A DNA stretch of 64,000 nucleotides from Nitrospirota bacterium (lineage in GTDB: Bacteria; Nitrospirota; Thermodesulfovibrionia; Thermodesulfovibrionales; UBA9159). Numbering within the stretch: the first letter of the stretch is position 1; each line of letters opens with the position of its first letter. The notes beneath the pieces were generated by a model. The model did not search any database, was not told where the DNA came from, and worked only from the letters and a program-made list of their open reading frames with translations. The stretch is from the NCBI GenBank assembly GCA_963699545.1, contig CAVOUE010000005.1, positions 128,001 to 192,000 on the forward strand, given 5' to 3'. Made by a program: the position numbers and the translations under genes. Shown here one piece after another: positions 17,192-35,514 of the stretch.

Positions 17192-18160
17192 TTAAAACAG
17201 GGGACGGACGCACCTTGGATCAGGAGCGCGCAGATCGCCGCAGATCAGAAGGCTGACTGCTGGACATCCTCCGTGACAGAGGGGAAAAAGTTCACATCCC
17301 CTATGGGTACAGGTATTCCCCTCGAATCTCCTGAAGAAGTCCAGTTTCGGGCTCTCCCATATCTCATCGAAACCGCTGACCAGAATATTGCCGAGCCTGA
17401 ACTCCTGGTTGCGAAAAAAGAGATAGCATGGATACACCGAACCATCCGGCAAAACGGAAAGCTTTGTTGTACCCGCAGGGCACCGGACATATTCCAGGAC
17501 GGGATAAGTGGTAACGTCCGGAATAAACCCCGAACAGAATACCCCCTTAAGACCCAGATGATCCCTCTTCAGCGGTACAAGGTCATGGAAGAACTCATAA
17601 AAAGGCCGGCAGCTTCTGAGGTCATCCCGGGACACGGCATCCGCATAAAGCAGATAATATGTGAGACCCGGCAGAAAGAGGTACTCTCTCGCCGCGTCGG
17701 TGAGTTTCCGGTCTTTCGTAGAGACACTCTTGAGCATCGGCCTGCATGTGGTGATATATCGGTGCAACTCGCCGGGAATCACCTCCGAGTGAAGAGAGAC
17801 CCCCACCCTCACCACCCCATTGTCGTACCTGCGATGAAGATGCTCAAGCAGCCGGACATCGTGACCGTTGGTACTGAGGGTGGTCCTCATTGCACGGGCA
17901 GATGCTCTTTCGACTAATTCACCCAAGCCCGGATGGAGGGTCGGTTCGCCCCCGAGAATATCCAGGCCTTGTATTCCCCTCTCGGAGAGTAGGGACACGA
18001 TCCTCTCAAAGTCGCAGACCGAGACATCAGCCTGTGAGGGGATTCCCCGATTGAAACAGAAAGAGCAGGAGAGATTGCATCTCAGCGTGCAATACAACTG
18101 AATGTAGTCGGGAACGCTTCTGTACAAATGTCCTCCGCTTCTGCCCGCACTGCTCTGCAC
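17192..18160 (-). CDS. Radical SAM/SPASM domain protein
   Basis: CNLSCSFC, GGEPTL, SPASM CPAG..DGSVYPC..C..C..CHGGCP..DPRC. Start may instead be TTG at 18127. Confidence 0.88.
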   Translation of the reverse strand: MQSSAGRSGGHLYRSVPDYIQLYCTLRCNLSCSFCFNRGIPSQADVSVCDFERIVSLLSERGIQGLDILGGEPTLHPGLGELVERASARAMRTTLSTNGHDVRLLEHLHRRYDNGVVRVGVSLHSEVIPGELHRYITTCRPMLKSVSTKDRKLTDAAREYLFLPGLTYYLLYADAVSRDDLRSCRPFYEFFHDLVPLKRDHLGLKGVFCSGFIPDVTTYPVLEYVRCPAGTTKLSVLPDGSVYPCYLFFRNQEFRLGNILVSGFDEIWESPKLDFFRRFEGNTCTHRGCELFPLCHGGCPAVSLLICGDLRAPDPRCVRPLF

Positions 18161-18672: not shown

Positions 18673-19170
18673 ATGGCTGATGAACATTTCTTCGATGTCG
18701 TCTGTAACGTAGACCTGCAGGAAGTTTCCAATGCCGTAAACCAGGCGATGAAAGAGATAGAGCAGCGCTTTGATTTCAAGGGAAGCAAGAGCTCCATAGA
18801 GCTGGACAAGGGCAAGGCGGTCATCACTCTCGCCTCCGATGACGAAACCAAACTGAAGAGCGTCATCGATATCCTCCAGTCCAAGCTCGTGAAACGCACC
18901 ATATCCCTGAAGGCCTTGAATTACGGCAAAATTGAACAGGCTGCCGGAAGCACGGTGCGCCAGGTGATCACCCTCCAACAGGGAATTCCTCAGGACAAGG
19001 CAAAGGAGATGGTGAAGCTCATCAAAGACCTGAAGCTGAAGGTGAACGCAGAGATACAGAAGGACCAGGTCCGGGTAAGGGCGAAAAAGATCGATGACCT
19101 CCAGCTGATCATCGCTAAACTGAAGGAAAAAGACTTCGGCATCGCCCTTCAGTTCACCAACTACCGTTAA
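18673..19170 (+). CDS. yajQ: YajQ family nucleotide/c-di-GMP-binding protein
   Basis: [43 protein letters not shown]. Confidence 0.93.
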
Positions 19171-19326: not shown

Positions 19327-19746
19327 TTAAAAAGATAATGTTCCTTTCGCTTTGCTTGCCAGCGTGATGAGGTTCATAGCCCCTGCTGCCCTGACACCGG
19401 GAATCAGGTCTTCTTCCGTGATCTTTTTGTTCGCCATGGTCTGGGAACACGACTGGATCTCGACTCCCATCTCCATCGCCTCGGTGAGCCTTTGTGTAAG
19501 TGTCGGAACCCCGGGCTGGGGAACTTCGTTCTTCTCGATGGCGCCCTTGACCAGAACATCCACGGCATTCTGGATGCAGTAGAGTATGGTCTTGTAGTTC
19601 GCTGACGCGGCGAGCGTGGCGAACATCAGGGCGGAGCGGGCCCTGGGTATGCTGTCAAATCCTGAAGCCGACAGGACGATGAAAAGCTCATCTATGTCCT
19701 GTTTCCCCGAGTGATTCGCTTCAAAAACCTTTTCTGTCGTCGCCAT
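19327..19746 (-). CDS. DsrE/DsrF-like sulfur-carrier family protein
   Basis: RARSALMFATLAAS..MGVEIQSCSQTM..EDLIPGV..GAMNL; RBS AGGAGGT before ATG 19746. Confidence 0.8.
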   Translation of the reverse strand: MATTEKVFEANHSGKQDIDELFIVLSASGFDSIPRARSALMFATLAASANYKTILYCIQNAVDVLVKGAIEKNEVPQPGVPTLTQRLTEAMEMGVEIQSCSQTMANKKITEEDLIPGVRAAGAMNLITLASKAKGTLSF

Positions 19747-19810
19747 TGTTACCTCCTTTTTCACTTTAAGGTTATTATCTTCAGCCGCCGCCATCGGGAC
19801 ACCCACCCTT

Positions 19811-20407
19811 TCAGGCCCCCAACATAAAATATGTTCCGCTAACGGCGATCGCCAGTCCGGCCAGTCTCAGCAGTCTGGTCCCCTTCCGGCTGTGCACAGC
19901 CATATACCCCGTCACGGCCCCGAGGATATGCAACCCCGCTGTTGCAGCGCAAAATCCGAGAGCATACATGGCGGGTTCTGCAAGGCGAGGCATTTCGGTG
20001 CCGTGAGCATGGCCGTGGAAGAGGGCAAAGAATCCGACAAAGCCCATCGCAACGGAGACCGGTAGTTTCCTCGCTGCCGCAAGGGCGCTGCCGAGGGCCA
20101 GGACAGAGAAGGCTATCCACAATTCTACCATCGGCAGTGCAATGCCCTTCATGCCGAGGATGCCGCCCACAGACATGACCGTCACAAAAGTTGCCGGAAC
20201 GGTCCATATCGCCCTTCCCCCCATCTGTGCGCTGAGGAAACCCACGGTGACCATGGCAAGGAGGTGGTCAAAGCCGAAGACGGGATGATTCAATCCCGAA
20301 ACAAAACCGCTGTCGCCGGCATTTCCATGAGCTCCGGCAATTCCGGGGATCAACACCATAACCGTGGTACCCAGGAACATATGTATCATTCGTTTATCCC
20401 ATTTCAT
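19811..20407 (-). CDS. HupE/UreJ family Ni/Co transporter
   Basis: AGAHG..GLNHPVFGFDHLLAM..FHGHAHGTEMP. Confidence 0.92.
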   Translation of the reverse strand: MKWDKRMIHMFLGTTVMVLIPGIAGAHGNAGDSGFVSGLNHPVFGFDHLLAMVTVGFLSAQMGGRAIWTVPATFVTVMSVGGILGMKGIALPMVELWIAFSVLALGSALAAARKLPVSVAMGFVGFFALFHGHAHGTEMPRLAEPAMYALGFCAATAGLHILGAVTGYMAVHSRKGTRLLRLAGLAIAVSGTYFMLGA

Positions 20408-20466
20408 CGTCGGGGCCCCCTTTACGTAAGGTTAATGGAACATGTGTTCCCACGCTGTTTCTGTCC

Positions 20467-21738
20467 CTACACAGCCAATACCGCATGAGGGGCATTGGCT
20501 ATTTTTGACAACACGGATCCGAACTCTCCCTTCCTCAGGACGTGCTCTGTGAGTTCGCTCTTTATGGACGTAATATCTGCCCGGCTGCGTATGAAGCGAG
20601 TGAGGATGCCGGCGTAGTCTATTTGGCTCACAAGCACGGCTCCTACAAGCCTGTTTCCCTCAAATACGAGTTTTCTGTATACTTTTCCTTTTCGAAAGGC
20701 CTTTACTTCATGGCTTTCACTGGTTTGGTTCGTGATGCCCATTGTCATGACGGGAAGGCCGTAGACTTCAACGGAGTTCATTCCCATGCCGCCCGCGTAA
20801 GCGCGCTGACCACCAGCCATGTTGTAGCCCGCTACTCGCCCCTGTTCGTACGCAAGGGGCACGATGGCGATCACCGAATCTCTGTTGTTGAGTATATCCG
20901 AGGCTTCGGCCACATCTCCTGCCGCGTAAATATTGTTGATACTCGTCATCATCCACTTGTCAACAACTATGCCTCTGTTTACGCGGACGGGAGTGTTCTT
21001 CACAATATCCATATTGGGCCTGACCCCAATGGCGATAATAAGGATCTCGCACTCAAGTTTTTTGTTGTTATCGAGGATTATTCCGCAGACATTCCCCTTC
21101 CCATCGGATAGTATTTCCTTCGCGGTATGACCTGCGATCAATTTGATACCGTTGTCTCTGAGTTGTCTGTTCACTATCGCGCCCGAGACTTCATCGAGCG
21201 CCACTGCCAGAATCCTCGGCCCAAGTTCAACAATTGTCACCTCCAATCCCAGGTCATTGATTCCCTCGGCGGCTTTGAGACCTATGAGCCCTCCGCCGAT
21301 GACCACTGCCTTCTTCTTCCCATGGGCAACTTTTTTTATTTTCTTCGCATCGTCCCACTTGGTAAAACTGAAGACGTTGTGCGCTTCAAGACCCTTTATA
21401 GGGGGGATAAAAGGCTGGCCCCCCGTACCGATCAGAAGCCTGTCGTATACGAAGACCGTTCCGTCCTCAAGGGATATTTGCCGACGCGCGCTGCTGATGT
21501 TTACGACCTTTTTCCCCAAGATGAGCCTTACATTGTTCTTTTTATAGAAACCGGCCGACCGATAGTACATGTCCTTCGATGCGACGTGACCGCCCAGATT
21601 ATAGGAAATAAGGGGTCTCGCATAGGCGAGATACGGCTCGTCGGATATCATCGTGATATCACCTTCACGGTCACGTTCCCTGATTCCTTCTACAGCCCCC
21701 ACTCCCGCATATGAGTTACCGACGATCACGTACTTCAT
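20467..21738 (-). CDS. FAD-dependent NAD(P)H oxidoreductase (NirB-N/rubredoxin-reductase-like)
   Basis: YVIVGNSYAG, YARPLIS, VVIGGGLIG, IYAAGDVAE. ATG 21738 overlaps the upstream stop. Confidence 0.9.
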   Translation of the reverse strand: MKYVIVGNSYAGVGAVEGIRERDREGDITMISDEPYLAYARPLISYNLGGHVASKDMYYRSAGFYKKNNVRLILGKKVVNISSARRQISLEDGTVFVYDRLLIGTGGQPFIPPIKGLEAHNVFSFTKWDDAKKIKKVAHGKKKAVVIGGGLIGLKAAEGINDLGLEVTIVELGPRILAVALDEVSGAIVNRQLRDNGIKLIAGHTAKEILSDGKGNVCGIILDNNKKLECEILIIAIGVRPNMDIVKNTPVRVNRGIVVDKWMMTSINNIYAAGDVAEASDILNNRDSVIAIVPLAYEQGRVAGYNMAGGQRAYAGGMGMNSVEVYGLPVMTMGITNQTSESHEVKAFRKGKVYRKLVFEGNRLVGAVLVSQIDYAGILTRFIRSRADITSIKSELTEHVLRKGEFGSVLSKIANAPHAVLAV

Positions 21739-22238
21739 TTTACCGGCGTATCCTCCCTTTCTCCTGTCAAAAACCTTGCTGCCGCCTTTTTCCTCACCGC
21801 ACTCGAAAGGTCGTGAACATCGCTGTGGCCAAGGATTCCCCTCTCGCATGCGGCCACACAGGCCGGGACCTCCCTATCGGGGCATCCCTCGCATTTCAGG
21901 GCAATGTGCTCGCCCTCCACCCTTTCAATCGCGCCGAAAGGACAATTCATGATGCACATCCAGCACCCGATGCAGCGGCTGTAATCAGTGACAACCCGTC
22001 CCTTTCCATTCCTGTGCCTGCTGCCCGACATGCAGGCGGTGGCGCAGGGGGCGTCTTCGCAGTTCCGGCAGATGACCGGGACATACGCGTTCCCGTTCCT
22101 GAGGAGCTTTATGCCGGCGATCTTTTTCATGCCCCTGCCTTGTTTCTTCGGGGCCGCCCTAAGGCATGCCTCAATGCATTTCCCGCATCCGTCGCAAACC
22201 CCGGGGCCAAGGGTCACCTTTCCCGTCTTTCTCGGCAT
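21735..22238 (-). CDS. CooF/HycB-like 4x[4Fe-4S] ferredoxin
   Basis: CDGCGKCIEAC, CRNCEDAPCATAC, CIGCWMCIMNCP, CEGC..PACVAAC. Confidence 0.88.
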   Translation of the reverse strand: MPRKTGKVTLGPGVCDGCGKCIEACLRAAPKKQGRGMKKIAGIKLLRNGNAYVPVICRNCEDAPCATACMSGSRHRNGKGRVVTDYSRCIGCWMCIMNCPFGAIERVEGEHIALKCEGCPDREVPACVAACERGILGHSDVHDLSSAVRKKAAARFLTGEREDTPVK

Positions 22239-22586
22239 TTATTTCAATGACTCCAGATACGTTGCAAGGTCCAGAAACATCTTCTCTGTCAGCTTATCGA
22301 ACTTCGGCATATTCTCCGGATGTTTCAGATGGGTGGCTGAGGGATCGGCGAGGTTCTTTATCTGCCATTCGATCCCCCTCTTCCTGGCGCTTTCATTTGT
22401 CAGGTCAGGGCCGGTGTTCCCGCCTTCGTTGCCGATCTTGTGGCAGTAATAACACCTCATTTTGTTATACAGGAGCTTCCCGTTCTCGGGAGAACCCGTC
22501 TTTTCTTTCGTTGCCGCCCATGCCTCTGCCCCCCAGAGAACTGTCACCGAAACCGCGACCATAACCAGAAACTTAAGGGTGTTCAT
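22239..22586 (-). CDS. Periplasmic monoheme cytochrome c
   Basis: Signal peptide (AEAWA), CYYCH, GPDLT, distal MP; RBS GAGGAGG. Confidence 0.88.
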   Translation of the reverse strand: MNTLKFLVMVAVSVTVLWGAEAWAATKEKTGSPENGKLLYNKMRCYYCHKIGNEGGNTGPDLTNESARKRGIEWQIKNLADPSATHLKHPENMPKFDKLTEKMFLDLATYLESLK

Positions 22587-22627
22587 TGCTTCCTCCTCTT
22601 TTGTGGTATATTTTTTTGAGGCCTGCG

Positions 22628-23392
22628 TTATTTTTTCTTTTTGCCCCAGGGGCAGACCGACATGCAGACGCCGCATATGGGATAGCCGACCCCCGATATG
22701 TTCTTGAATTTCAGCCAGAGCGTATCCCGGCACCTGGGGAAATCGAGCACCTCTTCCCTGGGAGGCGGAATGCCGTCAAAACTCAACCCTCTGATGGCCT
22801 TTGCAGGACATGCCTTTACGCACTCCTCACATGTCCCACACCTGCTCTTCATAGGCGTGTCCGGGGTGAGCGGCATGTTGGTGATGACCGAGGCATGCCT
22901 GAATCTCGGTCCCATTTCCGGGTTCACAATGAGCAGGCTCTTCCCGAACCATCCCAGTCCCGCAGCTCTCGCCACCGCCTTGCTCGGCAGGGTTGAGGAA
23001 GTGAGAGGTCCCCAATCCAGTTCCTTCGCCGCCTTCGTATCCAATTTTTCAGCGATGCTTGCGGCTTCAGAGGCAGGCACCGGTATGGCGTCATATCCAG
23101 CATGAATTATTTCACGCGCCAGATCGAAGGTAATAAGGTCAAGCAGGGTGTTTGCCATTCTATGGACATGGGCATAGGACGGTGTGGGCCTGTCCTCTAT
23201 GCGGTCCAACACACTGTCGTTGAGGCGCACTCCCACGCTTACGGCCATGGTAAAGCCCTCAAGAAGGTTCGCGGGCTTCGTGGGTATCCCCCTGAGGAGG
23301 CCCAGATCCGCGATCCCGATGATGTCCGCTCCCTTTTCAACGGCGCTTTTTTTTATCCTTAGCGTTGCCTGTATTCCGCGTATCAGGTCCAA
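22628..23392 (-). CDS. QueG/reductive-dehalogenase-like 2x[4Fe-4S] protein (putative cobalamin-binding)
   Basis: GADIIGIADL..KAVARAAGLGWFGKSLLIVNPEMGPRFR..CGTCEECVKACP..CGVCMSVCPWG. Confidence 0.82.
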   Translation of the reverse strand: MDLIRGIQATLRIKKSAVEKGADIIGIADLGLLRGIPTKPANLLEGFTMAVSVGVRLNDSVLDRIEDRPTPSYAHVHRMANTLLDLITFDLAREIIHAGYDAIPVPASEAASIAEKLDTKAAKELDWGPLTSSTLPSKAVARAAGLGWFGKSLLIVNPEMGPRFRHASVITNMPLTPDTPMKSRCGTCEECVKACPAKAIRGLSFDGIPPPREEVLDFPRCRDTLWLKFKNISGVGYPICGVCMSVCPWGKKKK

Positions 23393-23395
23393 TAT

Positions 23396-24326
23396 TCACT
23401 CCATATTAGGACGAAGTTGGCAGGTAACGGCATGAGCAAGAAGTTCTTCGTCATGGGCTTGTTTTATCCGTCCCATCTCCCGGTAAACCCCGGACAGGAG
23501 GAGATGGACTTCGGGATAATCCGGTCTGAGACGAATGGCTTTCCTGTAATATCTGGCCGCCCCGTATTTCCTTCCCATTTCGGAATAGAGGGTCCCGAGG
23601 TTGATATAATTTTCGGCATCTCCCGGTCTCAGCCGTGCTACTTTCTTCAGGATGCGCTCCGCTTCCTTCAGGCGGCCTGACTTCCTGTAGAGCCTGCCGA
23701 GGTTGTTCAGCGCCGGCAGATAATCAGGCCTGAGCGTGACCGCCCTGCGAAAGTTCTCTTCGGCCTGCACCACGTTCTCCTTTGAACTCAAAGAGCTGCC
23801 CGAGGTTGTTGTAGATCTCGGGCTGCTTATGCATCTTTCTGAGAAGGTCCTGATACAGAGGGATCGCCTCTTCGGCCCGCCCGACGGAGGAGAAGGCAAA
23901 GGCCAGGTGATAGAGATACCGGGGATTAGCGCGGTCCAGCCGCACCGCCTCTTTCCACAGCCCGGCAGCCCGCTCCAGGTCCAGCTTCTTATAAAAGACC
24001 AGGGCCAGGTTGTGGCGGAGCGGCGCGGAACCAGGGTTTGTTCTTATGGCTTCAGAGAAAAGCCTTTCCGCCTCGCCGTAATCTCCGCGTCCCAGGGCCT
24101 TTATCCCGTCTTTGTTCAGGGCGGTCGAAAGTCCCCCCGGGGAGGAAAGGGAAACAGGTTCCAGCGGGAAAAGGAAAGGCCTCGCTCCGCCGTACATCTT
24201 CTTCCAGTAAGCCTGGTCCCGTGCCGTCCAGTCATTGCATGCATGGACGTCAAAGGCATGCAGAGAGAATGTGAGGAGCAGCGCGACCAGCGCCAGGGTT
24301 GTCATCGTGTTCATTTTGCACCTCAT
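23396..24326 (-). CDS. Exported TPR repeat protein (one frameshift near 23780)
   Basis: ORFs 23724-24326 and 23396-23899 join into continuous TPRs (YNNLGQLFEFK / NVVQAEENFRRAV); N-terminal signal peptide. Confidence 0.75.
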
Positions 24327-24330
24327 CGCG

Positions 24331-24792
24331 TCATTTCACCTCGAAGTAGCTGTAGAGCCTTTCGAGGGCAGCCCCGAAGAGGATCTTCGCCAATCTGCCC
24401 TTCTGTTCCCTGGCCATGGCCACCGCCCTGTAGCTGCCTTTCTTCAGTCTGCCCCTGTCTGTCGCCTTCTCCTGCATCACGGCCTTCTTAAGGTCGAATA
24501 CAAAGTCCAGCCACTCATCGGGCTTGAGAAGGACCGTGCTGCACTTCTCCTCGGAGACCGCGGTGTAGGTGCCTCCGGAGAGCCCTTCTACCCAGAAGCA
24601 GACCTTCAGCTCCTTCATCTCCGCGCTCCTGTTGGCGTGAGCGCCGTTATGGATCCTGAGATAGAAGGTTTCCTTCGAGTCATCGGCCCAGAATCTCGGC
24701 TCCATGTTCCAATGTGCCAGGGCCGGAGCCGAGTGGAACAAGACTCCGAGGAGCGCGGCAACACACAGCCCTGTGACATACGGGTAACGCAT
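24331..24792 (-). CDS. Exported hypothetical protein
   Basis: Signal peptide ending APALA-HW; tightly packed in the operon. Confidence 0.65.
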   Translation of the reverse strand: MRYPYVTGLCVAALLGVLFHSAPALAHWNMEPRFWADDSKETFYLRIHNGAHANRSAEMKELKVCFWVEGLSGGTYTAVSEEKCSTVLLKPDEWLDFVFDLKKAVMQEKATDRGRLKKGSYRAVAMAREQKGRLAKILFGAALERLYSYFEVK

Positions 24793-24793
24793 A

Positions 24794-25702
24794 TCAGTGT
24801 CTTATGAGATCAGCGAGATGAGTCCTGTATTCGATGAATTCAGGACTTGTCCTCTCCCTCGGATGCGGCAGGTTTATGTTTACCACTTCCCTGATCTGGC
24901 CGGGTCTTGCGCTGAAGACAATGACTCTGTTGGCCAGATAGGCAGCCTCCTCGATATCATGGGTGACAAAAACTATGGTCTGCTCTATGCTCTGCCATAT
25001 CCTTATGAGATGGTCCTGGAGGTTGTTCCTTGTCTGGGCATCCAGCGCGCCGAAGGGCTCGTCCATCAGGAGAACTTCGGGATGGTTCACGATCGCCCTG
25101 CCCACGGCGACCCTCTGGAGCATTCCCCCCGAAAGCGTCCTCGGGTATGACTTCTCGAAGCCGGTGAGCTGAATGAGATCTATCGTCTTCGTCACCTGTT
25201 TCTTCCTCTCCTCACTTTCCACTCCCTGAAGTCTTGGACCGAGGCTTATATTGCTTTCGACCGTGAGCCATGGGAAGACCGCCCGCTCGCTCTGGAACAC
25301 CATGGCCCTCTGGGGGTGCGGGCCATCTATGCACACGCCTTTGCACTTTGCCACGCCGTTGGAGGGAGATTCAAAGCCCGCCAGTATCCTCAGAAGGGTG
25401 CTCTTCCCGCAGCCGCTCGGGCCGAGGAACGCGACGAATTCCCCGTGGTCGATGTTCAGGGTCACGTCCTTGAGCGCCACCAGCTCACAGGGTTTCTTTC
25501 TTGAAAAGAAGCGTTTCTTTTCGGTGATCACCGTCTCCCCGTGGGTCGTGTAAACATAGAAGGATTTGGAGACGTTCTCTATCTCCATGACGTGCCGTCC
25601 GTTGTGGATGGTCTTGCTCCGGGGACCGGAAATCCGCTCGATATTTTTCTTCATCATTGCTACCTCCCTGTTCTCTTCAATAGACGTTTCCATCATTGCC
25701 AC
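24794..25702 (-). CDS. NitT/TauT-type ABC transporter ATP-binding protein
   Basis: GPSGCGKST, LSGGMLQR, LLMDEPFGALDAQTR, VTHDIEEA. Confidence 0.95.
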   Translation of the reverse strand: MAMMETSIEENREVAMMKKNIERISGPRSKTIHNGRHVMEIENVSKSFYVYTTHGETVITEKKRFFSRKKPCELVALKDVTLNIDHGEFVAFLGPSGCGKSTLLRILAGFESPSNGVAKCKGVCIDGPHPQRAMVFQSERAVFPWLTVESNISLGPRLQGVESEERKKQVTKTIDLIQLTGFEKSYPRTLSGGMLQRVAVGRAIVNHPEVLLMDEPFGALDAQTRNNLQDHLIRIWQSIEQTIVFVTHDIEEAAYLANRVIVFSARPGQIREVVNINLPHPRERTSPEFIEYRTHLADLIRH

Positions 25703-26691
25703 CTCACAATCGCCTGTTCTGTTTTCCGTAAAATAGTGTCGAAGAGTATCCCGAGCATGCAGATCACCACCATCCCCCCCAGGACCGTCGGAGTATCAAG
25801 GAGGTTCCTCGCGTCTTCGATCATCCATCCAAGCCCGGCATCCACCGCTACCAGCTCTGCGGTTACAAGGCATACCCAGCCAATGCCGAAGCCGATCCTT
25901 ATCCCGGTAAAGATGGTGGGGAACGCCGACGGCAGCATCACCCTTCCGTAGACGTCCATCCTCTTTCCGCCGAGGGTAAGTATCGATTCGACATGTATCT
26001 GCTGTGTATTCCTGATGCCGCGAATTGTATTCAGGAGGATCGGGAAGAAAGATCCAAGCCAGATTATGTATATCGCCGGCGGGTTACCGATCCCGAACCA
26101 CAGGATCGCAAAGGGCAGCCACGCCGGAGGAGGTATCACTCTGATAAGATTCAGAAGGGGATCAATATAGTCTGAAATCCTGCGGAAATTGGCGATGAGG
26201 AACCCGAGCGGTATCCCGGTGAGAATGGCAAGGAAAAAGGCGATGAAGAGCCGCTGTAGCGATGCTATGATATGTATCTGCAGATAGTGCTTTGCCCAGT
26301 GGCCCTCCAGCTTTGCTATCACCGTCGTGGGCGGAGGGAGAAGGACCGACCTGACAAAATGTGTATATACGATCATCTCCCAGCAAATCAGGACAACCCC
26401 AACCGAAGTCAATGCGCGGACAAGAACGATCGGAATCACTTTCGGAAACCTGGACTTCAGAAGATGGAGAATAGCTATCGCGATCGCCACTCCGATCGCG
26501 AAGTGGAGTGGGTTGTAGACCTCCCCTACCTTGAACTCCTTCTCCATAGGCCTGTTCCAGGTGTCAACAGGCCCTCCTTTCTGGTCGTACACCTGTTCTG
26601 CCCCATAGGTCACTGCGACCTGCACCACCAGGAACCCCAGGGCCAAGGCCATGACCACGGCCAGTACACATATCTTTTTCCTGAACTCCAT
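25693..26691 (-). CDS. NitT/TauT-type ABC permease (third)
   Basis: LLPPP..IRVIPPPAWLP..FFPILLNT..LVTAEL..GLGWMI; extra N-terminal TM region. Confidence 0.92.
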   Translation of the reverse strand: MEFRKKICVLAVVMALALGFLVVQVAVTYGAEQVYDQKGGPVDTWNRPMEKEFKVGEVYNPLHFAIGVAIAIAILHLLKSRFPKVIPIVLVRALTSVGVVLICWEMIVYTHFVRSVLLPPPTTVIAKLEGHWAKHYLQIHIIASLQRLFIAFFLAILTGIPLGFLIANFRRISDYIDPLLNLIRVIPPPAWLPFAILWFGIGNPPAIYIIWLGSFFPILLNTIRGIRNTQQIHVESILTLGGKRMDVYGRVMLPSAFPTIFTGIRIGFGIGWVCLVTAELVAVDAGLGWMIEDARNLLDTPTVLGGMVVICMLGILFDTILRKTEQAIVRWQ

Positions 26692-26696
26692 TAATG

Positions 26697-27643
26697 TTAC
26701 CTCCCCTCGTTACAGAGTATTTTTTTGTTTATTTTTGTGATGTCCGACTCAACCTGAAGAAAAACACCTCCTCTTCTAAGGATGAAAAACCTTTCGATCT
26801 TCTTTAGGAAAATATCCATGGTAAGCCCCAGGGCACATACCGTCGTCATTCCTACAAACACCGTGGGCGTTTCGAGCCGGTTCCTCGCGCCTTCGATCAT
26901 AAAACCGAGTCCGCTGTCCGCAGCAACGATCTCCGCACTCACCAGGACAAGCCAGCCGATGCCGAAGCCGATCCTTATACCGGTGAGAATAGTGGGCAGA
27001 GCGGAAGGGATGATCACATGCCTTAAGACATCCATGCTGTTCCCTCCCAGCGTCTGTATCACCTCAATGTGAAGTTTTTCCGCCTCCCTCACGCCCTGCA
27101 CGGTGTTCAGAAGGATGGGGAAGAAAGATCCGAGGGCTATCACAAAAACAGCAGGACCCTCCCCGATCCCGAGCAGGATGATGGCGAAGGGCAAGATGGC
27201 AGGAGCAGGGACCATCCTCATAAAATTCAAGGGAGGGGCCAACCAGTCATATGCCTTTTTGAAAAGACCGAGCATAATACCAACGGGAACAGCAATGACA
27301 AGGGCAAGAGAAAACCCCGCCAGAAACCTGCTCATGGTAGCGATGATGTTTGCCTGCAAATACCCTTTCTTCAGGAAATAGACTGTCTTTGTGATGATGA
27401 CCGACGGAGGCGCGAGGAGCATGCTCCTGAAGATCCCGAGGTAGAGGGTCCCCTCCCAGAGAAGGAGGAAGAGCGACCACACCACGAAGGTCCCGTAAAG
27501 CTCCCTGGAGATTGCATGTTCCGCATAATATCGGGAAAGCGTTGCCAGCAGCAGCACCGCCGAAACAGCAGCTATAAAGAAGAGTGGATGAATCGTACAC
27601 CTCCCTGAAATACTCCCTGTCTGTTCCAGTTCCAGTAATTCAT
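26697..27643 (-). CDS. NitT/TauT-type ABC permease (second; probable frameshift near 27595)
   Basis: MRMVPAPAILP..FFPILLNT..LVSAEI..GLGFMI. Likely start is the ATG overlapping the upstream stop (MNYWNWNRQ..); the track gives 27665. Confidence 0.88.
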
Positions 27644-28513
27644 GACCATCCCTGCACAAGTCCATCGAACTTTTTCAGGATGAGATCGGTTATTGTCCCG
27701 AGCATGCCCACCACGATTATGCCGCTCAGGACCGTAGTCGTATCGAGAAGGATTCTCGAGTCCTGGATCATCCATCCCAGTCCGGCTCCGATATCCACGG
27801 AGGCCAGTTCGGCAGTGATCACCGTTATCCACCCGATTCCAAGCCCTATCCTCGCCCCTGTCAATATGTGGTGATAGGCTACCGGCAGGATTACCTCCAT
27901 AAGCACGTCAAACTTGTCTCCTCCAAAAGTCAAAACCGTTTCTACCTGAACCGGTTCGGCCTTGTTCACCCCATTCACCGTATTCATAAAGATGGGGAAA
28001 AAAACCCCGAGCCATATGATGAATATCGCAGAGGCATAACCGATACCGAACCACAATATCGCAAGAGAGAGCCACGCAGGCGCCGGAATCATACGGACCG
28101 CATTGATCAGGGACTCAATGGGTGAAAAACGTTTCGAAAAATAGCTCACTAAAATGCCGAGCGTGACTGCACTGAGAAGGGCCAGAACAAATGCATATGC
28201 CAGCCTGAAAAGCGTTGAACCTATCTGGGGCTGGAGGAACCCTATCGACCAGAGATATACGATATTCGAAAAAAACTTTGTGGGTGGCGGCAAAAGCACG
28301 GGACTCAGGAGCTTTAGTAACGACAACATTTCCCAGACAAAGAGGAGAACCGCTTGCCACGATGAAGCCCTTCAGCAAAGAGGAGGAGACCAACCCGGGA
28401 AAGAGGCGTCGTGCGACAGCAAGGACTACACATAAGAAGAGTAATATGAGGATGAAGAACGGTGAAGCGATGATATCTCCGCTTTCCATTTCTGGAAAAA
28501 TATTGCCATGCAT
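27640..28513 (-). CDS. NitT/TauT-type ABC permease (first; frameshift near 28355)
   Basis: N-terminal TM part from ATG 28513 joins VLLFVWEMLSLL..VRMIPAPAWLS..FFPIFMNT..AGLGWMI. Confidence 0.85.
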
Positions 28514-28562
28514 CAGGGTGCCCCTTTTATAAGGTATATATTTTATTAATTACGAATATCAA

Positions 28563-28592
28563 GGAAGGATCCCCAGCCCGGGGACCCCTCCC
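28563..28592 (-). terminator. GC-rich stem-loop after the binding-protein gene (attenuator or mRNA stabiliser)
   Basis: Minus strand GGAGGGGTCCCC-GGGCT-GGGGATCCTTCC about 10 nt after the stop. Confidence 0.5.
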
Positions 28593-28601
28593 TGACACAT
28601 C

Positions 28602-29633
28602 CTACAGTCCCAGCTCCGGCAGAGATGAAAGCCCCATCTCTTTCAGCGCCAATTTCTGGAATCTGTCGTTCAGACCGTCTTTCTGGAACACTGCCTTCTC
28701 GATTATCCCGAGGGCCTTCGTCGCCTCGGCAAACTTCTGCGACCCTTCAGGGTCGAGGCTGAGGTTGAGCCTCTGCCGTTTTTCTCTGAAGACCGTTGCG
28801 ATCTCCTTTTCATCGATGCCGCACCATTTTGCATTCGCCCTGACGTTGTCATCAAAGTTCTTCGCGATATGCATGTAGCCCTTTATGTGGGCCTTCATGA
28901 CCTTCGTCGCAACCTCCACGTTCTTGTTCGCCCAGTCTGTGCCGAACGCCATCCGGCAGCATACGTGTCTCGGCCAAATATCCTTCGAAAAGATCGCCGG
29001 CCTGCCGTATTTTGTCGCCTCTGCATGGGTCGCCCAAGGCTCCCAGAGTATCGCGCAATCAAGGTCACCCTTTTCGAGCCCCGTGAGGATGTCCTGGTTG
29101 TGGGTGAAGTTTCTCACTGTGGCGTCCTTGAAGGGATCTATGCCTGCCTCCAACATCTTGTACCGCACAACGATATCAGCGGTCGCGGCCCTGATCGTGC
29201 CTATCTTTTTACCGCGCAGGTCCTTCACTGTCTTGATGTCCGAAGGCCGGTTCATCGGCACCACCACTGCCGAAGACTCCATGGCAGAACCCGAAACTAT
29301 GTTCATGGGCACGTCCCTGGTTACCATGCCTATGGACGGGCTTGAGCCCAGATATGCGACCTGAATCGCTCCGGTAATACAGGCAGAACCGATCTCCCCG
29401 GACCCCTGGAAGAGAACCGGCTTGACGTCGAGTCCTTCATCCTTGTAAAAGCCCTGTTCAAGGGCCACAAAGAGGGGGGCATGATGCGTCGCCTTCAGAT
29501 ATCCGATCTTGATCTCTTCCTTGGCCAGGGATTTCTTGACAAAAGGCCCAATAAATGACCCGCCCAGGACAAATGCCCCAGTGGCCACCATTGAGGCTTT
29601 CACAAAATCCCGTCTGTTCAGCTTTTTGTCCAT
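28602..29633 (-). CDS. NitT/TauT (SsuA/NrtA-like) ABC substrate-binding protein with Tat signal
   Basis: LNRRDFVK twin-arginine motif, IKIGYL..LFVALEQGFYKDEGLDV, DLRGKKIG, WEPW, WPRHVCC. Confidence 0.9.
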   Translation of the reverse strand: MDKKLNRRDFVKASMVATGAFVLGGSFIGPFVKKSLAKEEIKIGYLKATHHAPLFVALEQGFYKDEGLDVKPVLFQGSGEIGSACITGAIQVAYLGSSPSIGMVTRDVPMNIVSGSAMESSAVVVPMNRPSDIKTVKDLRGKKIGTIRAATADIVVRYKMLEAGIDPFKDATVRNFTHNQDILTGLEKGDLDCAILWEPWATHAEATKYGRPAIFSKDIWPRHVCCRMAFGTDWANKNVEVATKVMKAHIKGYMHIAKNFDDNVRANAKWCGIDEKEIATVFREKRQRLNLSLDPEGSQKFAEATKALGIIEKAVFQKDGLNDRFQKLALKEMGLSSLPELGL

Positions 29634-29708
29634 TCTTCCTCCTTCTTCCTTTTTGAGAGTAAGAGTTGGACGTCTTAATCCGTCCAATGCGCCTCTTTAC
29701 TCATACTC

Positions 29709-30248
29709 TTATGCGTTGTATACGAGCTCGGTCTTTACATTTACCGTTTTACAAATCGTCAATCCCACGGGCGAGAACTGTACGACACGGTCGAAGACCT
29801 TCTTGATCGCTTCCTTGCTCGCGTCGCTCTTGATGTGCACTTTGGCCTTCACGGTATGGTAGCCGGGAAGGTCCTTCAGCCCTTCAAGACCCGAGAGACG
29901 GAGAAAACCCGGCAGATCGATGTGGCCTTCCAGATCAATCTCGATGCTCTTTAATTGTATCCCCTCTAAGGCAGCATTGAGACTCAATCCAACTGTCAGG
30001 CAGGCCCCATAGCAAGCAAGAATTGTTTCATGGGGGCTTATCGCCGTATCAGTACCTGCTACAGCCTCAGGCTCATCAAAGTTCAGAGTGAAGTTCCTGA
30101 GCTTGGCCTCAGACTTCAGTCCGCCTTTCCATTTTGTTTTTGCGGTCCATATCGTCGCCCCTTTCTTGGGATCATCCTTAACGGCATTGACCGTAGCTTT
30201 GAACACCTCAAGATCGACATCATTAACCATTTTGGTTCCAACAGCCAT
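29709..30248 (-). CDS. OsmC-like protein (long form)
   Basis: DEPEAVAGTDTAISPHETILACYGACL..LEGHIDLPGFL..FSPVG; Ser at the usual second Cys position. Confidence 0.85.
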   Translation of the reverse strand: MAVGTKMVNDVDLEVFKATVNAVKDDPKKGATIWTAKTKWKGGLKSEAKLRNFTLNFDEPEAVAGTDTAISPHETILACYGACLTVGLSLNAALEGIQLKSIEIDLEGHIDLPGFLRLSGLEGLKDLPGYHTVKAKVHIKSDASKEAIKKVFDRVVQFSPVGLTICKTVNVKTELVYNA

Positions 30249-30329
30249 GTTTGTTACCTCCTCTTTTTTTGTTTACCATTCGTAACCCCTGCCTTTCACT
30301 GCACTTGCGCCTCGTACCTCCACCTCCTT

Positions 30330-30878
30330 TCAGGGAAAGAAAACGTTTGGTTTCAGTGTCGGATTCACAACCGCTGCGATCCTTCCTATTGAACGAACGC
30401 TGTACTTCTTCCTTATCAGCTTCGACAACTCTTGCAGATCACCGTAATACATCGCCTCGGAGGGACAGTTCTGAACGCACGCAGGTATCCCGCCTTTGGA
30501 TGTCCTGTGAATGCAGAGGGTGCATTTCTGCATCTTCAGGTCCTCACCCATTTGAGGCGCTCCGAAGGGGCACGCCCTGAAGCATTCAACGCACCCAATA
30601 CATAAATCCTTGTTCACCAGCACAATGCCGTCTTCTTCTCTTTTTGATATAGCCTTCGTGGGGCAGACCCTCAGGCACGCAGGGGAACCGCAGTGCATGC
30701 ACGCCATGGGTTTCCAGTGAATCTTCCATTCACCCGCCACCTTGCTTTCGACCTCCATAACCTGTATCCACTTGGGGCCGGGAGGAACGCCGTTTTCGGC
30801 CTTGCACGCTGTTTCACACGCGTGGCAGCCCACGCACCGGAATGTGTCGACAAATATCGCCTTGTGGTGGTTATGCAT
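30330..30878 (-). CDS. DmsB-like 4x[4Fe-4S] electron-transfer subunit
   Basis: CVGCHACETACK, CMHCGSPACLRVCP, CIGCVECFRACP, KCTLC..PACVQNCP. Confidence 0.92.
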   Translation of the reverse strand: MHNHHKAIFVDTFRCVGCHACETACKAENGVPPGPKWIQVMEVESKVAGEWKIHWKPMACMHCGSPACLRVCPTKAISKREEDGIVLVNKDLCIGCVECFRACPFGAPQMGEDLKMQKCTLCIHRTSKGGIPACVQNCPSEAMYYGDLQELSKLIRKKYSVRSIGRIAAVVNPTLKPNVFFP

Positions 30879-33093
30879 GGACCCCCTCCTTTTTTATCTG
30901 CACCAGACAGTTGAAATAGGCAATGGTGTGCCCGTCCCGCTCAAAGTCATACTCCTCCATAATCCCGGCCCCCACGTCCCTGGGCCCTCCTATCAGTTGT
31001 TCAAGCAGGACATTGGCGCTCCCGTTGCTCTTTACCCATATACCGCTGTTCACCTCACATACGCCTGCCTTTATCCTGTTCGTCATCTTTGCGATCACCG
31101 ATATCTCTCCCCTGTCATTGAAAACCTTCACCCTGTCACCGTTCTCTATTCCGCGGTCCACCGCATCCTTTTCGTTGATGAAGATGCTGGGGGGACCTTC
31201 TATCTCCTGAATCTCTTCTATGTTGAACCACTGGCTGTGGGTCCTGTAGGGTGCATGCTGGGAGATGAGCATGAGAGGATATTTCTTGTAGAGGTCCGGA
31301 CGGCTGACGGGACTCTCTGCAGTCTCCTCAAAATGAGGTACAGGATGCCAGTCCCCGGCATATTTTTTCCCCTTTTCGACCATTCCCGTTGAATAGAGCT
31401 CCACCTTTCCGGTTGGGGTATCGAATACCCTGTCGCTCCAGGGGATGCGGGGAGCATACTTTTCCGGAACCCTTATGGGATCGTTGGAAGCAAGGGCATT
31501 CTTTATCGTGCTATGGCTGATATCGTCGGCAAGGAACTCCCTGATCCAGTCAAGCCCTGTATACTCCTTGGGGAAGAACTTTTCGTATCCCATTCTCCGC
31601 CCCAGTTCACACCAGAAGTCGATGTCTGGCTTCGACTCAAAGAGAGGTTCTATCACGGGCATCTGGAGTTGGAGATAGGGATGCCAGTAGGAAGGATGAA
31701 CTCCCCACTGCTCAAACGTATCGCTCGCGGGAAGGACCAGGTCCGCCCAGTCCGTGTCATCAGTCATGAAGAGTTCCATGCTTACGAAGAGCTCGAGTTT
31801 CTTGATGGCTTCCGTCATCCGGTGGACATTCGGATGCTGGCTGATGAGTCCTCCTCTCCAGGAGATGACCGCCTTGAGCGGAGGGTCCTTCGCTTCCCTC
31901 AGCGCAGGGCCGAAGGTGCTTATGTTGATGAGCCTTCTCCTCAGGGTTTTGTGCGGAGCGCCCCTCGGATACATCACCCTCTCGAAGTTAAGAATCCCCT
32001 TATAGGCGAGCAGGTCGAAGTAATTGCAGCTCGCTCCCTCTTTGCCGACATGGCCACATACGGCCGCCAGACAGGAATAGGCCCTCTGGGTCTGATGCCC
32101 GTTCGTGTAACGCTGATGTCCCCATCCCGTCTCCATGTGAGAATGGTACGTTGCGTAAATCTCCGCCGCCTTCGCAATCTTTTCGGGTTCAACCCCTGTG
32201 ACCTTAGCGGCTCTTTCCAACGTCCATTTGGATATTCCCTTCATCAATTCATCAAAGCCGTAGGTATAATTTGCGATGAACTCCTTGTCGTGGAGGTCTT
32301 TCTTCACGATATGGTTGATCATCGCAAGGACCATGGCTGCATCGGTCCCGGGTCTCGGCTGAAGGAACAGATCCGCCTTTGCGGCAATGGGGGTAAGATA
32401 GGAATCGATAACGATAAGGTATGCCCCGCGTTCCAGCGCATCCCACAGGAACGGCAGAGAATGGACGTTGGTGAAGGAAGAATTATGGCCCACAATCATT
32501 ATCACCTCAGCCTTCTTTGACCATAGCTCTATGCTCTGGGTATGCTGCGTGCCCGTGGTAAACGTGGCGCCGGCAAGACCGCTCAGTATGCAGAAACTCC
32601 CCACGAGCTTGGATGAGCCAAACAGGTTCAGGAAACGGCCGGAAAGTGTCTTTGCGAGGAACTCCCTGTTGCCGCTGTACACGTATTCCACGAGGGACTC
32701 TCCGCCCCATTTCTTCTTGCAGTAATCAAGTTTGTCCACAAGAAAATCATAGGCCTCATCCCAGCTCACCCGCTTGAAATCACCCTTCCCTCTTTTGCCG
32801 ACCCTCATCAGTGGATATTTGATCCGGTCTTTATGGTACGTTCTCTGCACATAAGTATTTGCCTTGACACAGAGATGGCCTCTGGTGATGGGGTGGTCGG
32901 GATCGCCCTCGACCTTGAGCATCCTGCCGTCTTTCACGTAGGCAACGACACCGCAGGTATCAAAGCAGTTTCTCGGGCAGATGGTCTTTACCACCTTATC
33001 CACCCTCATCGTGCTACCGTTGACCGTGGTAGTAAGTGCCGGAACAGCTTTTCTCATCTGGTCCCTCCCCTGTGTATTCAAATTTTTATTCAT
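30871..33093 (-). CDS. DMSO-reductase (MopB) superfamily Mo/W-bisPGD oxidoreductase catalytic subunit, no Tat signal
   Basis: TICPRNCFDTC..EGDPDHPITRGHLCVK, PRPGTDAAM, TDDTDWADLVLPA, THSQW..DAVDRGIENGDRVKVFNDRGE. Confidence 0.93.
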   Translation of the reverse strand: MNKNLNTQGRDQMRKAVPALTTTVNGSTMRVDKVVKTICPRNCFDTCGVVAYVKDGRMLKVEGDPDHPITRGHLCVKANTYVQRTYHKDRIKYPLMRVGKRGKGDFKRVSWDEAYDFLVDKLDYCKKKWGGESLVEYVYSGNREFLAKTLSGRFLNLFGSSKLVGSFCILSGLAGATFTTGTQHTQSIELWSKKAEVIMIVGHNSSFTNVHSLPFLWDALERGAYLIVIDSYLTPIAAKADLFLQPRPGTDAAMVLAMINHIVKKDLHDKEFIANYTYGFDELMKGISKWTLERAAKVTGVEPEKIAKAAEIYATYHSHMETGWGHQRYTNGHQTQRAYSCLAAVCGHVGKEGASCNYFDLLAYKGILNFERVMYPRGAPHKTLRRRLINISTFGPALREAKDPPLKAVISWRGGLISQHPNVHRMTEAIKKLELFVSMELFMTDDTDWADLVLPASDTFEQWGVHPSYWHPYLQLQMPVIEPLFESKPDIDFWCELGRRMGYEKFFPKEYTGLDWIREFLADDISHSTIKNALASNDPIRVPEKYAPRIPWSDRVFDTPTGKVELYSTGMVEKGKKYAGDWHPVPHFEETAESPVSRPDLYKKYPLMLISQHAPYRTHSQWFNIEEIQEIEGPPSIFINEKDAVDRGIENGDRVKVFNDRGEISVIAKMTNRIKAGVCEVNSGIWVKSNGSANVLLEQLIGGPRDVGAGIMEEYDFERDGHTIAYFNCLVQIKKEGVHA

Positions 33094-33532
33094 TTTCTCT
33101 TACGAGAGTGTTGCACTCTTCTACTATTTTATAGCCGAAGTTCACATCCGGAGAACCCTCAAGGGTCGCCTTAACGGTGCAGTATTTCTCCATAGAGAGC
33201 TCAATCGCCCTTTTTACCGCAGTTTCAGAAAGGTTATTCCCTTTTACAATGAATTCTATGGTGATCGTCGTAAACCTTTTGGGCCATTCGTCCTCCTTGT
33301 CGCCCTTCACGACGATCTCAAAACCTGTCAGGTCCTGCTTTTTCTTCCTGAGGATCGAGAGCACCGCCATACCTGAACAACTGCCGAGCCCTATCAGGAG
33401 AAGATCGGTCGGCATGAGACCGGCGTTTTTCCCTCCGCCCTCGTTATCACCGTCCATGAATACCACATGCCCCGATGAAGCCTCCCCGACAAACTGAACC
33501 CCATCGAGATATCTCACCCTTGCTTCAACCAT
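33086..33532 (-). CDS. OsmC/YhfA family protein
   Basis: FVGEASSGH..PTDLLLIGLGSCSG..AIELSMEKYCTV (two Cys); RBS AGGAGG. Confidence 0.88.
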   Translation of the reverse strand: MVEARVRYLDGVQFVGEASSGHVVFMDGDNEGGGKNAGLMPTDLLLIGLGSCSGMAVLSILRKKKQDLTGFEIVVKGDKEDEWPKRFTTITIEFIVKGNNLSETAVKRAIELSMEKYCTVKATLEGSPDVNFGYKIVEECNTLVRENE

Positions 33533-33585
33533 ATCTGATCCTCCTTGGCTTATGCGGTTCGTTAAGGTTTCTTGATTACGGAAGG

Positions 33586-33601
33586 AGCAACTTCCGTACC
33601 A
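33586..33601 (-). promoter_or_regulatory. Sigma54 -24/-12 promoter of the 17-gene operon
   Basis: Minus strand TGGTACGGAAGTTGCT (GG-N10-GC), about 53 nt upstream of ATG 33532 and next to a sigma54 activator gene. Confidence 0.8.
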
Positions 33602-35463: not shown

Positions 35464-35514
35464 GTCACCTATGGTGACGTATAACGAGAGTCAATTAAGA
35501 TACGGGAGGAAGTT

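Follow-up and report, generated by a model that had tools for sequence, protein, structure and literature searches.

In assimilatory nitrate reduction, as encoded by Klebsiella nasFEDCBA and Bacillus NasBC, a NitT/TauT-type ABC importer is combined with a cytoplasmic enzyme of the MopB family and an FAD/NAD(P)H subunit related to the N-terminal part of NirB, and in AorABC an NAD-linked molybdenum or tungsten (Mo/W) enzyme is joined by a polyferredoxin and an FAD subunit. The new analysis concerns a 17-gene operon from a Nitrospirota bacterium, found in a 64,000-nucleotide stretch (the window) that spans positions 128,001 to 192,000 of contig CAVOUE010000005.1 (G000:C5:128001-192000) in a metagenome-assembled genome (MAG) of 3.04 Mb in 13 contigs, 87% complete and 5% contaminated. 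The operon lies at 19327-33601 on the minus strand of the window and is conserved and apparently undescribed. Its architecture, the predicted cytoplasmic location of its Mo/W enzyme and the type of its putative electron chain can be considered firm. The open-access literature gave no description of the gene set, in agreement with a first-pass annotation of the sequence, which had not recognised the combination as a described pathway.

Family calls come from Pfam and NCBIfam profile searches of the window proteins, and model scores are quoted in bits against the model's cut-off. The best solved relatives of the catalytic subunit MopB are acetylene hydratase (2e7z, 2.7e-61) and the Thermus Psr/Phs enzyme (2vpw, 1.1e-59), and the ligand Cys of both aligns with Cys168 of MopB, which thereby carries the ligand type of PsrA/PhsA. 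Like PsrABC/PhsABC, the window system has a MopB enzyme with an N-terminal [4Fe-4S] cluster and a four-cluster partner. It was otherwise rejected as a member of that group: the enzyme lacks a Tat signal, an NrfD-type membrane anchor gene is missing, the PhsA model reaches 217 against 694, the first cluster motif (FS0; CX3CX3C...C) has CX3C in place of CX2C, and the operon also encodes an NAD(P)H module and an importer. Acetylene hydratase is likewise cytoplasmic, about 730 amino acids (aa) long and Cys-ligated, but MopB has Phe in place of the Asp that follows the second cluster Cys, a residue that we take to be the catalytic Asp13 of acetylene hydratase; membership of this family was also rejected, as MopB has a conserved iron-sulfur (FeS) partner gene and a redox partner chain, and selenocysteine (Sec) is predicted in its orthologues.

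The other described systems match in parts. With assimilatory nitrate reductase the operon shares the logic of importer, cytoplasmic MopB and FAD/NAD(P)H subunit, and the NirB model matches its flavoprotein at 264 bits; in contrast, the NasC model reaches 199 against 1100, MopB lies nearer to Psr and acetylene hydratase, and the window adds OsmC proteins, a cytochrome c and HupE. As in PadEFGHI/AorABC, a pterin enzyme is encoded together with an FeS protein (PadI-like) and a flavoprotein (PadH-like), whereas the catalytic subunit here is a MopB protein and not an AOR-family or 2-oxoacid oxidoreductase, and the PadH and PadI models score 324 against 475 and 69 against 700. The SAO (selenocysteine-assisted organometallic) system, as far as it is described in parts of the Haft 2022 preprint, supplies the best transporter models, has a DsrE-like member and, as the preprint notes, a Cys-Cys motif in its SaoX binding protein. 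Compared with that description, the window has a MopB enzyme, three permeases instead of one, no Sec in its permeases and no MerB-like lyase. The SAO importer was rejected because its models stay below their cut-offs (SaoA 250 against 360, SaoP 134-177 against 295, SaoX 80 against 300) and a SaoL-like gene is missing. Two sulfur-disproportionation clusters were also rejected, going by passages of PMC12998232: according to that paper, MOLY is probably extracellular and has a TorD-type chaperone, and YTD needs YedE and chp genes, which are missing here.

Operon architecture and conservation

The unit consists of 17 open reading frames (ORFs), all on the minus strand, from 33532 to 19327, and its promoter motif extends it to 33601. 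The gene order is OsmC1, MopB, DmsB-type FeS protein, OsmC2, binding protein, three permeases, ATPase, a 153-aa protein, a TPR protein, a QueG-like protein, cytochrome c, a CooF/PadI-like polyferredoxin, a PadH/NirB-N-like flavoprotein, HupE/UreJ and DsrE. The co-oriented run, the family identities in this order and the gaps of less than about 90 bp claimed by the first-pass annotation are all borne out: judged from ORF coordinates and start sites, the junctions throughout are overlaps or gaps of at most 88 bp. The claimed consensus sigma54 promoter was recovered as well, by pattern match, as TGGTAC-N5-TTGCT at 33601-33586 (minus strand), 54 nt upstream of the OsmC1 ATG, which is itself preceded by AGGAGG; the pattern occurs three times in the window against 0.14 expected, and none of 100 shuffles gave three. 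The unit therefore combines the two hallmarks of a sigma54 regulon, a -24/-12 element and a cognate AAA+ activator. A scan of the window found no additional sigma54 motif inside the operon, and neither the internal sigma70-like sites (8 against 12.0 expected) nor the terminator-like sites (18 against 18.0) exceed chance.

The 17-gene list of the first-pass annotation stands, but two of its gene models do not, since permease 1 and the TPR gene are each split between frames by a one-base insertion. Alignment with two orthologous loci (L011 and L012) places one extra base in each gene, and in L012 each lies in a single frame. The base at 28348 in permease 1 is missing from the contigs of three of four public sequencing runs, the fourth having no depth there, and no public-run contig spans the TPR site near 23775. 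Because the breaks are private to the window assembly, they represent either long-read-style assembly errors or recent mutations. A reading of the TGA codons upstream of permease 1 as Sec was rejected, as the N-terminus lies in the other frame as a result of the insertion. The public contigs that closely match the operon derive from runs X1-X3, labelled wetland metagenome, a label that carries no habitat claim.

A locus scan with one genome per species returned 30 loci, of which eight (Nitrospirota, Nitrospinota) share 71-93% identity with the window, 21 (Firmicutes, Synergistaceae) 48-57% and the last one 32%; the following counts refer to the high-identity orthologous loci (71-93%) that reach the position of each gene. 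In Nitrospirota and Nitrospinota MAGs, a core of activator, MopB, FeS protein, OsmC2, importer, 153-aa protein, CooF/FAD pair and HupE is kept in the same order. MopB-FeS-OsmC2 is found in 7/7 loci with a downstream flank and the binding protein in six of these (missing in L016), at least three permease genes occur in all five loci that extend far enough, and ATPase, 153-aa protein, CooF and FAD protein are each present in 4/4. HupE is retained in 3/3 (L014, L015 and L017, upstream of MopB in the last), and the activator in 6/7 loci with an upstream flank. The remaining genes vary: cytochrome c occurs in 3/4, TPR in 2/4 and the QueG-like gene in 1/4 of the loci that reach them, and OsmC1 is clear in 3/8 (L011, L013, L040), with a degenerate partial match in L012. 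As such, the core and the three-permease layout co-occur in other genomes, and the proposal of a sigma54-controlled unit in which an importer is combined with a signal-less Mo/W enzyme and an NAD(P)H-type module holds; the sulfur-carrier and B12-type parts of that proposal fare less well, as DsrE and the QueG-like protein are poorly conserved. Among 41 related genomes, the binding protein is found in only four, and the same four have MopB at 76% or more, other matches being at most 39%.

The Nitrospinaceae locus L017 (14754-18535) carries four consecutive permease paralogues against three in the window. In five of the more distant loci (L018-L021 and L025; Syntrophomonadaceae, Desulfitobacterium, Synergistaceae; 52-56%), an MFS transporter and a small M54-like protein stand beside the MopB homologue, together with two FeS proteins and AFOR_N-only, FAD/NAD, GlcD/GlcF-like, GcvH lipoyl and CMD/AhpD-like proteins.

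Catalytic subunit, importer and electron chain

MopB (30871-33093, minus strand, as are all operon genes below) contains the Pfam domains Molybdop_Fe4S4, Molybdopterin and Molydop_binding, and its neighbour (30330-30878) is a DmsB-type four-cluster ferredoxin subunit (Fer4_11 91 bits; DMSO_dmsB 139 against 214). Neither sequence contains a Tat motif or signal peptide. The FeS gene adjoins MopB in all seven orthologous loci with a downstream flank and in 18 of the 21 loci at 48-57% identity. A complex prediction for MopB and OsmC2 gave a score of 0.00, which speaks neither for nor against binding.

The ligand motif GSFC[ILV]LSG is invariant in every locus examined and only its Cys codon varies, being TGA in three loci (L013:10475, L014:3944, L015:2561; L013 and L004 are the same genomic place), where the frame continues beyond the codon at 76% identity. 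On this reading of the codon, the orthologues of Cys168 in these three loci are selenocysteines. In addition, nine of the 120 homologue clusters listed are gene calls that start directly past the ligand position, as expected where a TGA was read as a stop, which suggests that the clade includes putative unannotated selenoproteins. The host genome encodes selA. A search for a selenocysteine insertion sequence (SECIS) hairpin after the TGA gave folds no better than shuffles (z +0.7 to +1.2), and a small stem with one compensatory pair at this place has no evidential weight for a SECIS.

Several other MopB enzymes were tried and rejected. A His immediately after the Sec or Cys ligand is the signature of formate dehydrogenase, and here Ile, Leu or Val follows in all loci, with the Fdh-alpha model at 259 against 666. 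The dimethyl sulfoxide (DMSO), trimethylamine N-oxide (TMAO) and selenate reductases (DmsA/YnfE/TorA) have a Ser ligand in place of Cys/Sec and a Tat motif that is absent here (dmsA_ynfE 327 against 778), and respiratory arsenate reductase ArrA fails at 101 against 1600 bits, again with no Tat motif. Since the ligand is not Ser, no His follows it and Phe replaces Asp, MopB is best placed in an uncharacterised Cys/Sec branch near Psr/Phs and acetylene hydratase. Among the homologues listed, 81 clusters lie at 45-93% identity before a fall to 37% or less; the clade extends over Nitrospirota, Nitrospinota, Firmicutes and Synergistota, and the carriers of 55-57% homologues include the cultured Neomoorella humiferrea, Dehalobacterium formicoaceticum and Desulfitobacterium sp. 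In the parts of a 2023 superfamily survey that bear on the ligand, Sec is given only for formate and formylmethanofuran dehydrogenases (PMC10100899).

Judged from its sequence, the importer is formed by one binding protein, three paralogous permeases and one ATPase. The binding protein (28602-29633; NMT1_2 and TAT_signal matches) carries a Tat signal and an HVCC motif, and its AlphaFold2 (AF2) model, with a mean predicted local distance difference test score (pLDDT) of 89, is predicted to have the SsuA/TauA fold. The top Foldseek hits are TauA 6ssy (1.9e-21) and SsuA 3ksj and 2x26, with further matches to CmpA/NrtA, ThiY and Thi5 structures. The curated scores for this family are missed, SsuA_fam (the top NCBIfam match) reaching 119 against 163.5 and the taurine model 52 against 304. 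The HVCC pair is invariant in 7/7 orthologues, and the protein belongs to an isolated clade, with 24 clusters at 58% or more before identity falls to 30%. Permease 1 (27640-28513), permease 2 (26697-27665) and permease 3 (25693-26691) are all BPD_transp_1 proteins, and the ATPase (24794-25702; ABC_tran) is of the NitT/TauT type.

The putative NAD(P)H module consists of the CooF/PadI-like polyferredoxin (21735-22238; Fer4_11) and the PadH/NirB-N-terminal-like FAD/NAD(P) oxidoreductase (20467-21849, probable start 21738; Pyr_redox_2 197 bits). The set of MopB, FeS protein, CooF and FAD protein is also encoded in Syntrophomonadaceae, Desulfitobacterium and Synergistaceae loci.

Accessory, regulatory and neighbouring genes

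OsmC2 (29709-30248) belongs to an OsmC-related one-Cys family by Pfam and NCBIfam, a large family with 1636 representatives at an E-value of 1e-3 or better. It retains only the first peroxiredoxin Cys, Cys83, which is invariant in 38/38 sequences, the second position being mostly Val; an extra Cys, Cys79, is found in the operon orthologues (LACYGAC). OsmC1 (33086-33532) is a canonical two-Cys OsmC/YhfA-like protein with both peroxiredoxin positions (Pfam OsmC 72.9 bits; PRK10738 115 against 138). OsmC1, the TPR protein, the QueG-like protein and DsrE are accessory. DsrE, the last gene (19327-19806), exceeds the Pfam cut-off (53 bits against 22.7), and its persulfide carriage is putative.

The QueG-like gene (22628-23392; Fer4_16) encodes a short protein of 254 aa with two [4Fe-4S] motifs and eight invariant Cys. 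Its AF2 model (pLDDT 89) has query-normalised template modelling (TM) scores of 0.66-0.75 to PceA/NpRdhA and 0.55-0.58 to QueG chains, and predicts a minimal QueG/reductive-dehalogenase core without the tRNA-binding C-terminal domain. Full-length QueG was rejected on length (370-437 aa in solved chains) and score (TIGR00276 76 against 200). Elsewhere, short QueG-fold FeS proteins adjoin RACo-type activases in 3/3 places (G000:C5:2351-4603, C3:870001-872846 and C1:23988-26740), an arrangement that hints at a possible role in corrinoid handling.

Three of the other genes encode exported proteins: a mono-haem cytochrome c with a CYYCH motif (22239-22589; Pfam/NCBIfam), the TPR protein (23396-24326; Pfam) and the 153-aa protein (24331-24792), which has a signal-like N-terminus and matches no family in Pfam or NCBIfam. 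Orthologues of the latter share an AHWDMEPRFW motif and two Cys, and an Atlas search gave only beta-sandwich leads, at 0.90 or below. HupE/UreJ (19811-20407) is a membrane protein that matches the HupE_UreJ model at 189 bits.

The flanking GAF activator claimed by the first-pass annotation is present at 33926-35428 (minus strand), with GAF, sigma54-AAA+ and HTH_8 domains by Pfam. A GECxCG motif in its GAF domain is found in 8/8 Nitrospirota and Nitrospinota sequences, including that of the window and a paralogue on contig C3 of the same genome; the activators of the Firmicutes loci have a different N-terminus. The palindrome TTGCA-N3-TGCAA, a candidate activator site that occurs twice upstream of the C3 paralogue, is found twice in the window against 1.98 expected, with none in the promoter region, and a search upstream of the two window promoters gave no inverted repeats. 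The claimed divergent tusA flank is there too (35515-35769, plus strand; NF001423 72.6 against 78), but it has its own sigma54-like motif (35448-35463, plus strand, pattern match) and heads a separate operon. This operon (35448-41491, plus strand) continues with a protein that has a MoCF_biosynth, or molybdenum cofactor (Moco) synthesis, domain (36103-37161, plus strand, domain match), a 2Fe-2S subunit, a xanthine-dehydrogenase-family MoCoBD subunit, XdhC and a MobA-like transferase, and is possibly part of the same regulon. The tusA gene also stands beside the activator in L012 and on contig C1, where the Moco-synthesis-domain gene again follows it.

At the other end, the gene that converges on DsrE (18673-19170) is a DUF520/YajQ gene by Pfam. 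Further downstream lie the seemingly unrelated genes for a radical SAM/SPASM protein (17192-18160) and for V/A-type ATPase subunits (9825-15457), both on the minus strand. The third exact match to the sigma54 pattern TGGTAC-N5-TTGCT is at 61981-61996 (plus strand).

Readings of the operon's function

The operon is tentatively read as a sigma54/GAF-activator unit for the uptake and cytoplasmic, NAD(P)H-linked two-electron reduction of an anionic, sulfonate-headed sulfur compound, a possibility that falls short of being probable and that is favoured because it fits an enzyme related to Psr/Phs, a binding protein of TauA/SsuA fold, the set of thiol proteins and a host with dsrA. Candidate substrates would be thiosulfate, a polythionate, an organic thiosulfonate or a sulfonate disulfide, all of which carry a reducible S-S or S-O bond. 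By analogy with the Psr/Phs/Ttr enzymes, MopB might cleave this S-S (or S-O) bond with electrons that would pass from NAD(P)H via FAD and the iron-sulfur chain. OsmC2, together with OsmC1 and DsrE where present, could then trap a reactive thiol or persulfide product, and the cytochrome c, the 153-aa protein and the TPR protein would act outside the membrane on the substrate or the binding protein. The resulting sulfite and sulfide could feed the DsrAB pathway; canonical dsrAB is encoded in the host at C3:398736-400920, with dsrA at 530 bits against a cut-off of 393. A second, divergent dsrAB-like pair lies at G000:C4:38439-40554, its dsrA (316 bits) staying below the cut-off. There are precedents for single elements of this scheme: DsrE3A and TusA carry thiosulfonate in Metallosphaera, SoeABC with TauABC places a cytoplasmic MopB enzyme beside a sulfonate importer, and FisR is a sigma54 activator that senses sulfane sulfur via Cys residues.

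A number of observations weigh against the sulfur-compound reading. No operon protein attains a curated NCBIfam cut-off, and all functional labels thus rest on resemblance. DsrE has no match in the 30 related loci, including L014, L015 and L017, which extend 3' of the FAD gene; after HupE, L014 and L015 have a second OsmC-like gene in place of DsrE. In an alignment of 30 sequences, relatives at 22-30% identity among them, the binding protein's Cys-Cys motif is conserved to at least 90% and is thus a hallmark of the subfamily without a pointer to the operon's substrate. The MopB homologues at 48-57% stand in other contexts, with an MFS transporter, GlcD/GlcF, GcvH and CMD, or, in rumen Lachnospiraceae, with an HxlR regulator. 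TusA takes part in Moco synthesis, and its pairing with a Moco-synthesis-domain gene means that it may serve cofactor maturation and not substrate sulfur. As far as we know, established redox potentials do not allow NAD(P)H to drive the reduction of thiosulfate. Finally, the sulfur-compound reading leaves HupE, the QueG-fold protein and a repeated corrinoid-methyltransferase neighbourhood unexplained.

This neighbourhood is the starting point of a second reading, which is rather unlikely but accounts better for HupE, the QueG-fold protein, the L016 locus and the paralogous regulon. Here, an imported oxidised methylated chalcogen or metalloid compound (a sulfoxide, selenoxide, methylseleninate, methylarsonate or dimethylarsinate) would be reduced by MopB, and corrinoid methyltransferases, encoded at another place and controlled by a paralogous activator, would demethylate the product; the sulfide, selenide or As(III) set free would be held by the Cys proteins, and HupE would supply cobalt. 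Such a link to corrinoid methyltransferases and cobalt was absent from the first-pass interpretation. In the Nitrospinota locus L016 (72%), activator, MopB, FeS protein and OsmC2 are followed by a corrinoid protein, a non-pyrrolysine MtmB-superfamily protein and an MtaA/CmuA-family methyltransferase (257 bits against 235), then by an AAA_5/VWA pair, with no ABC importer in the locus. In L022 and L023 the MopB homologue is accompanied by genes for MtmB-like and corrinoid proteins and for RACo, which lie on one side of it in the first locus and on the other side in the second, and L029 has RACo; overall, however, corrinoid-type genes occur in only 4/30 loci.

In the host genome itself, the activator paralogue (76%) at C3:879.5-882.3 kb is followed by OsmC2-like (48%) and DsrE-like (72%) genes behind a sigma54-like motif, and is flanked by CobW, a rhodanese-like protein and a divergent methyltransferase cluster. 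The latter comprises OsmC, two MtaA-family genes, CMD, MtrH, a corrinoid protein, a QueG-fold protein and RACo, an SsuA-family binding protein (191 bits against 163.5) with ABC genes, an HdrD/TfrB-like CCG protein, cysteate synthase (480 against 325) and a fused sulfopyruvate decarboxylase with both halves above their cut-offs. Its gene content suggests a putative coenzyme-M-like, thiol-dependent methyl transfer in a bacterium. The region (G000:C3:861500-884200; L041, L043) further holds a QmoC-like membrane protein, and MtaA-family homologues with one in-frame TGA, which may be selenoproteins or broken genes, are found at G024:C1:121513-122553 and G000:C3:827244-828131. On the 49-kb contig C1, an operon copy at 1-12 kb and this methyltransferase cluster at 26-35 kb stand together. 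C1 (1-48748; L042, L044) was binned into the MAG and represents a related population, with 72-90% nucleotide identity to C5, C3 and C12 (85-90% to C5 in the operon region, 71-79% to the counterparts of the flanks) and with many frameshifts and in-frame stops. As C1 comes from a different population, its synteny may be coincidence.

The methyltransferase is present in all four operon genomes, but also in 25/41 relatives against 4/41 for the operon, so that co-presence is weak evidence; since the kin are not independent, it is merely compatible with a link and no proof of one. The operon of the window itself encodes no methyltransferase. In the parts of Kountz and Balskus that concern these genes, similar methyltransferase clusters are said to serve methyl-sulfur and methyl-selenium metabolism, and a figure legend lists Sao genes among the neighbours of some clusters (PMC10418091). 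The type 1 mlp clusters in this part of the paper likewise contain MtaA-family, corrinoid-protein and activase genes, which here stand beside paralogues of the regulator, OsmC2 and DsrE. In contrast to them, the methyltransferases lie outside the window's operon, and the C3 cluster has an MtrH-family gene, whereas the paper's clusters, as described there, are without a tetrahydrofolate methyltransferase (PMC10418091). In addition, the known S-oxide and N-oxide reductases, as far as the relevant parts of the survey cover them, have a Ser ligand and not Cys/Sec (PMC10100899).

An improbable alternative is the uptake and cytoplasmic reduction of a selenium or metalloid oxyanion (selenate, selenite, arsenate or antimonate) for assimilation or detoxification, in which the dithiol motifs would act as ligands for Se or As(III). 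Such motifs are CC in the binding protein, CxxxC in OsmC2 and CxC in the activator. Among the NCBIfam models, MopB scores highest with DMSO/selenate family subunit A (327 bits), OsmC2 matches an 'OsmC-related (seleno)protein' model, SaoA, SaoP and SaoX are the best transporter models, and host selA and the predicted selenoprotein orthologues of MopB fit as well. All of the supporting model scores, however, are far below their cut-offs; Pfam and NCBIfam find no MerB-like, ArsC/ArsM, SelD or YedE gene in the operon, and the structural neighbours of the binding protein take sulfonates, nitrate or bicarbonate, or pyrimidines.

It is very unlikely that the system runs in the oxidising direction, with a soluble SoeAB-like dehydrogenase that would oxidise sulfite or another low-potential substrate from an imported organosulfonate and reduce NAD(P)+. 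The redox potential of sulfite permits the reduction of NAD+, and the sulfonate-type importer, the cytoplasmic Cys-ligated MopB with its FeS partner, the NAD(P)-linked module and the sulfonate-metabolism genes of the neighbouring regulon (cysteate synthase, sulfopyruvate decarboxylase) would suit this direction; against it, profile searches reveal no desulfonating enzyme in the operon, and sulfite is consumed by the host's DsrAB. Finally, mere juxtaposition of an importer operon, a MopB operon and an NAD(P)H module, for which the importer-free MopB-FeS-OsmC2 set of L016 and the MFS transporter of the Firmicutes homologues might be cited, is highly improbable given the order retained in four loci from two phyla, the tight junctions, the single sigma54 motif and the chance-level frequency of internal sigma70-like and terminator-like sites.

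The findings have implications for the MopB superfamily and for anaerobic metabolism. The clade is populated yet without a characterised member, its metal ligand alternates between Cys and predicted Sec, and a soluble design of importer, Mo/W enzyme, polyferredoxin and NAD(P)H flavoprotein is known in nitrate assimilation but not in the branch of Psr/Phs and acetylene hydratase. Identification of the substrate would extend the anaerobic cycling of sulfur, selenium or arsenic by one reaction, and the cultured carriers of 55-57% homologues render the question experimentally approachable. In a broader scheme, which is a long shot, the operon and the paralogous regulon would constitute a bacterial pathway for the anaerobic use of methylated or organo-chalcogen or metalloid compounds, in which the operon would provide the importer and the Cys/Sec Mo/W reductase and the regulon would contribute MtaA-type methyltransferases, MtrH, a corrinoid protein, an HdrD-like protein and coenzyme-M-type biosynthesis genes. 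If this were true, the new MopB clade would represent the missing reductive step ahead of corrinoid-dependent demethylation, for instance of methylarsenicals, methylselenium oxides or coenzyme-M-type thioethers and disulfides, and would be the first MopB family other than formate dehydrogenase with a selenocysteine metal ligand.

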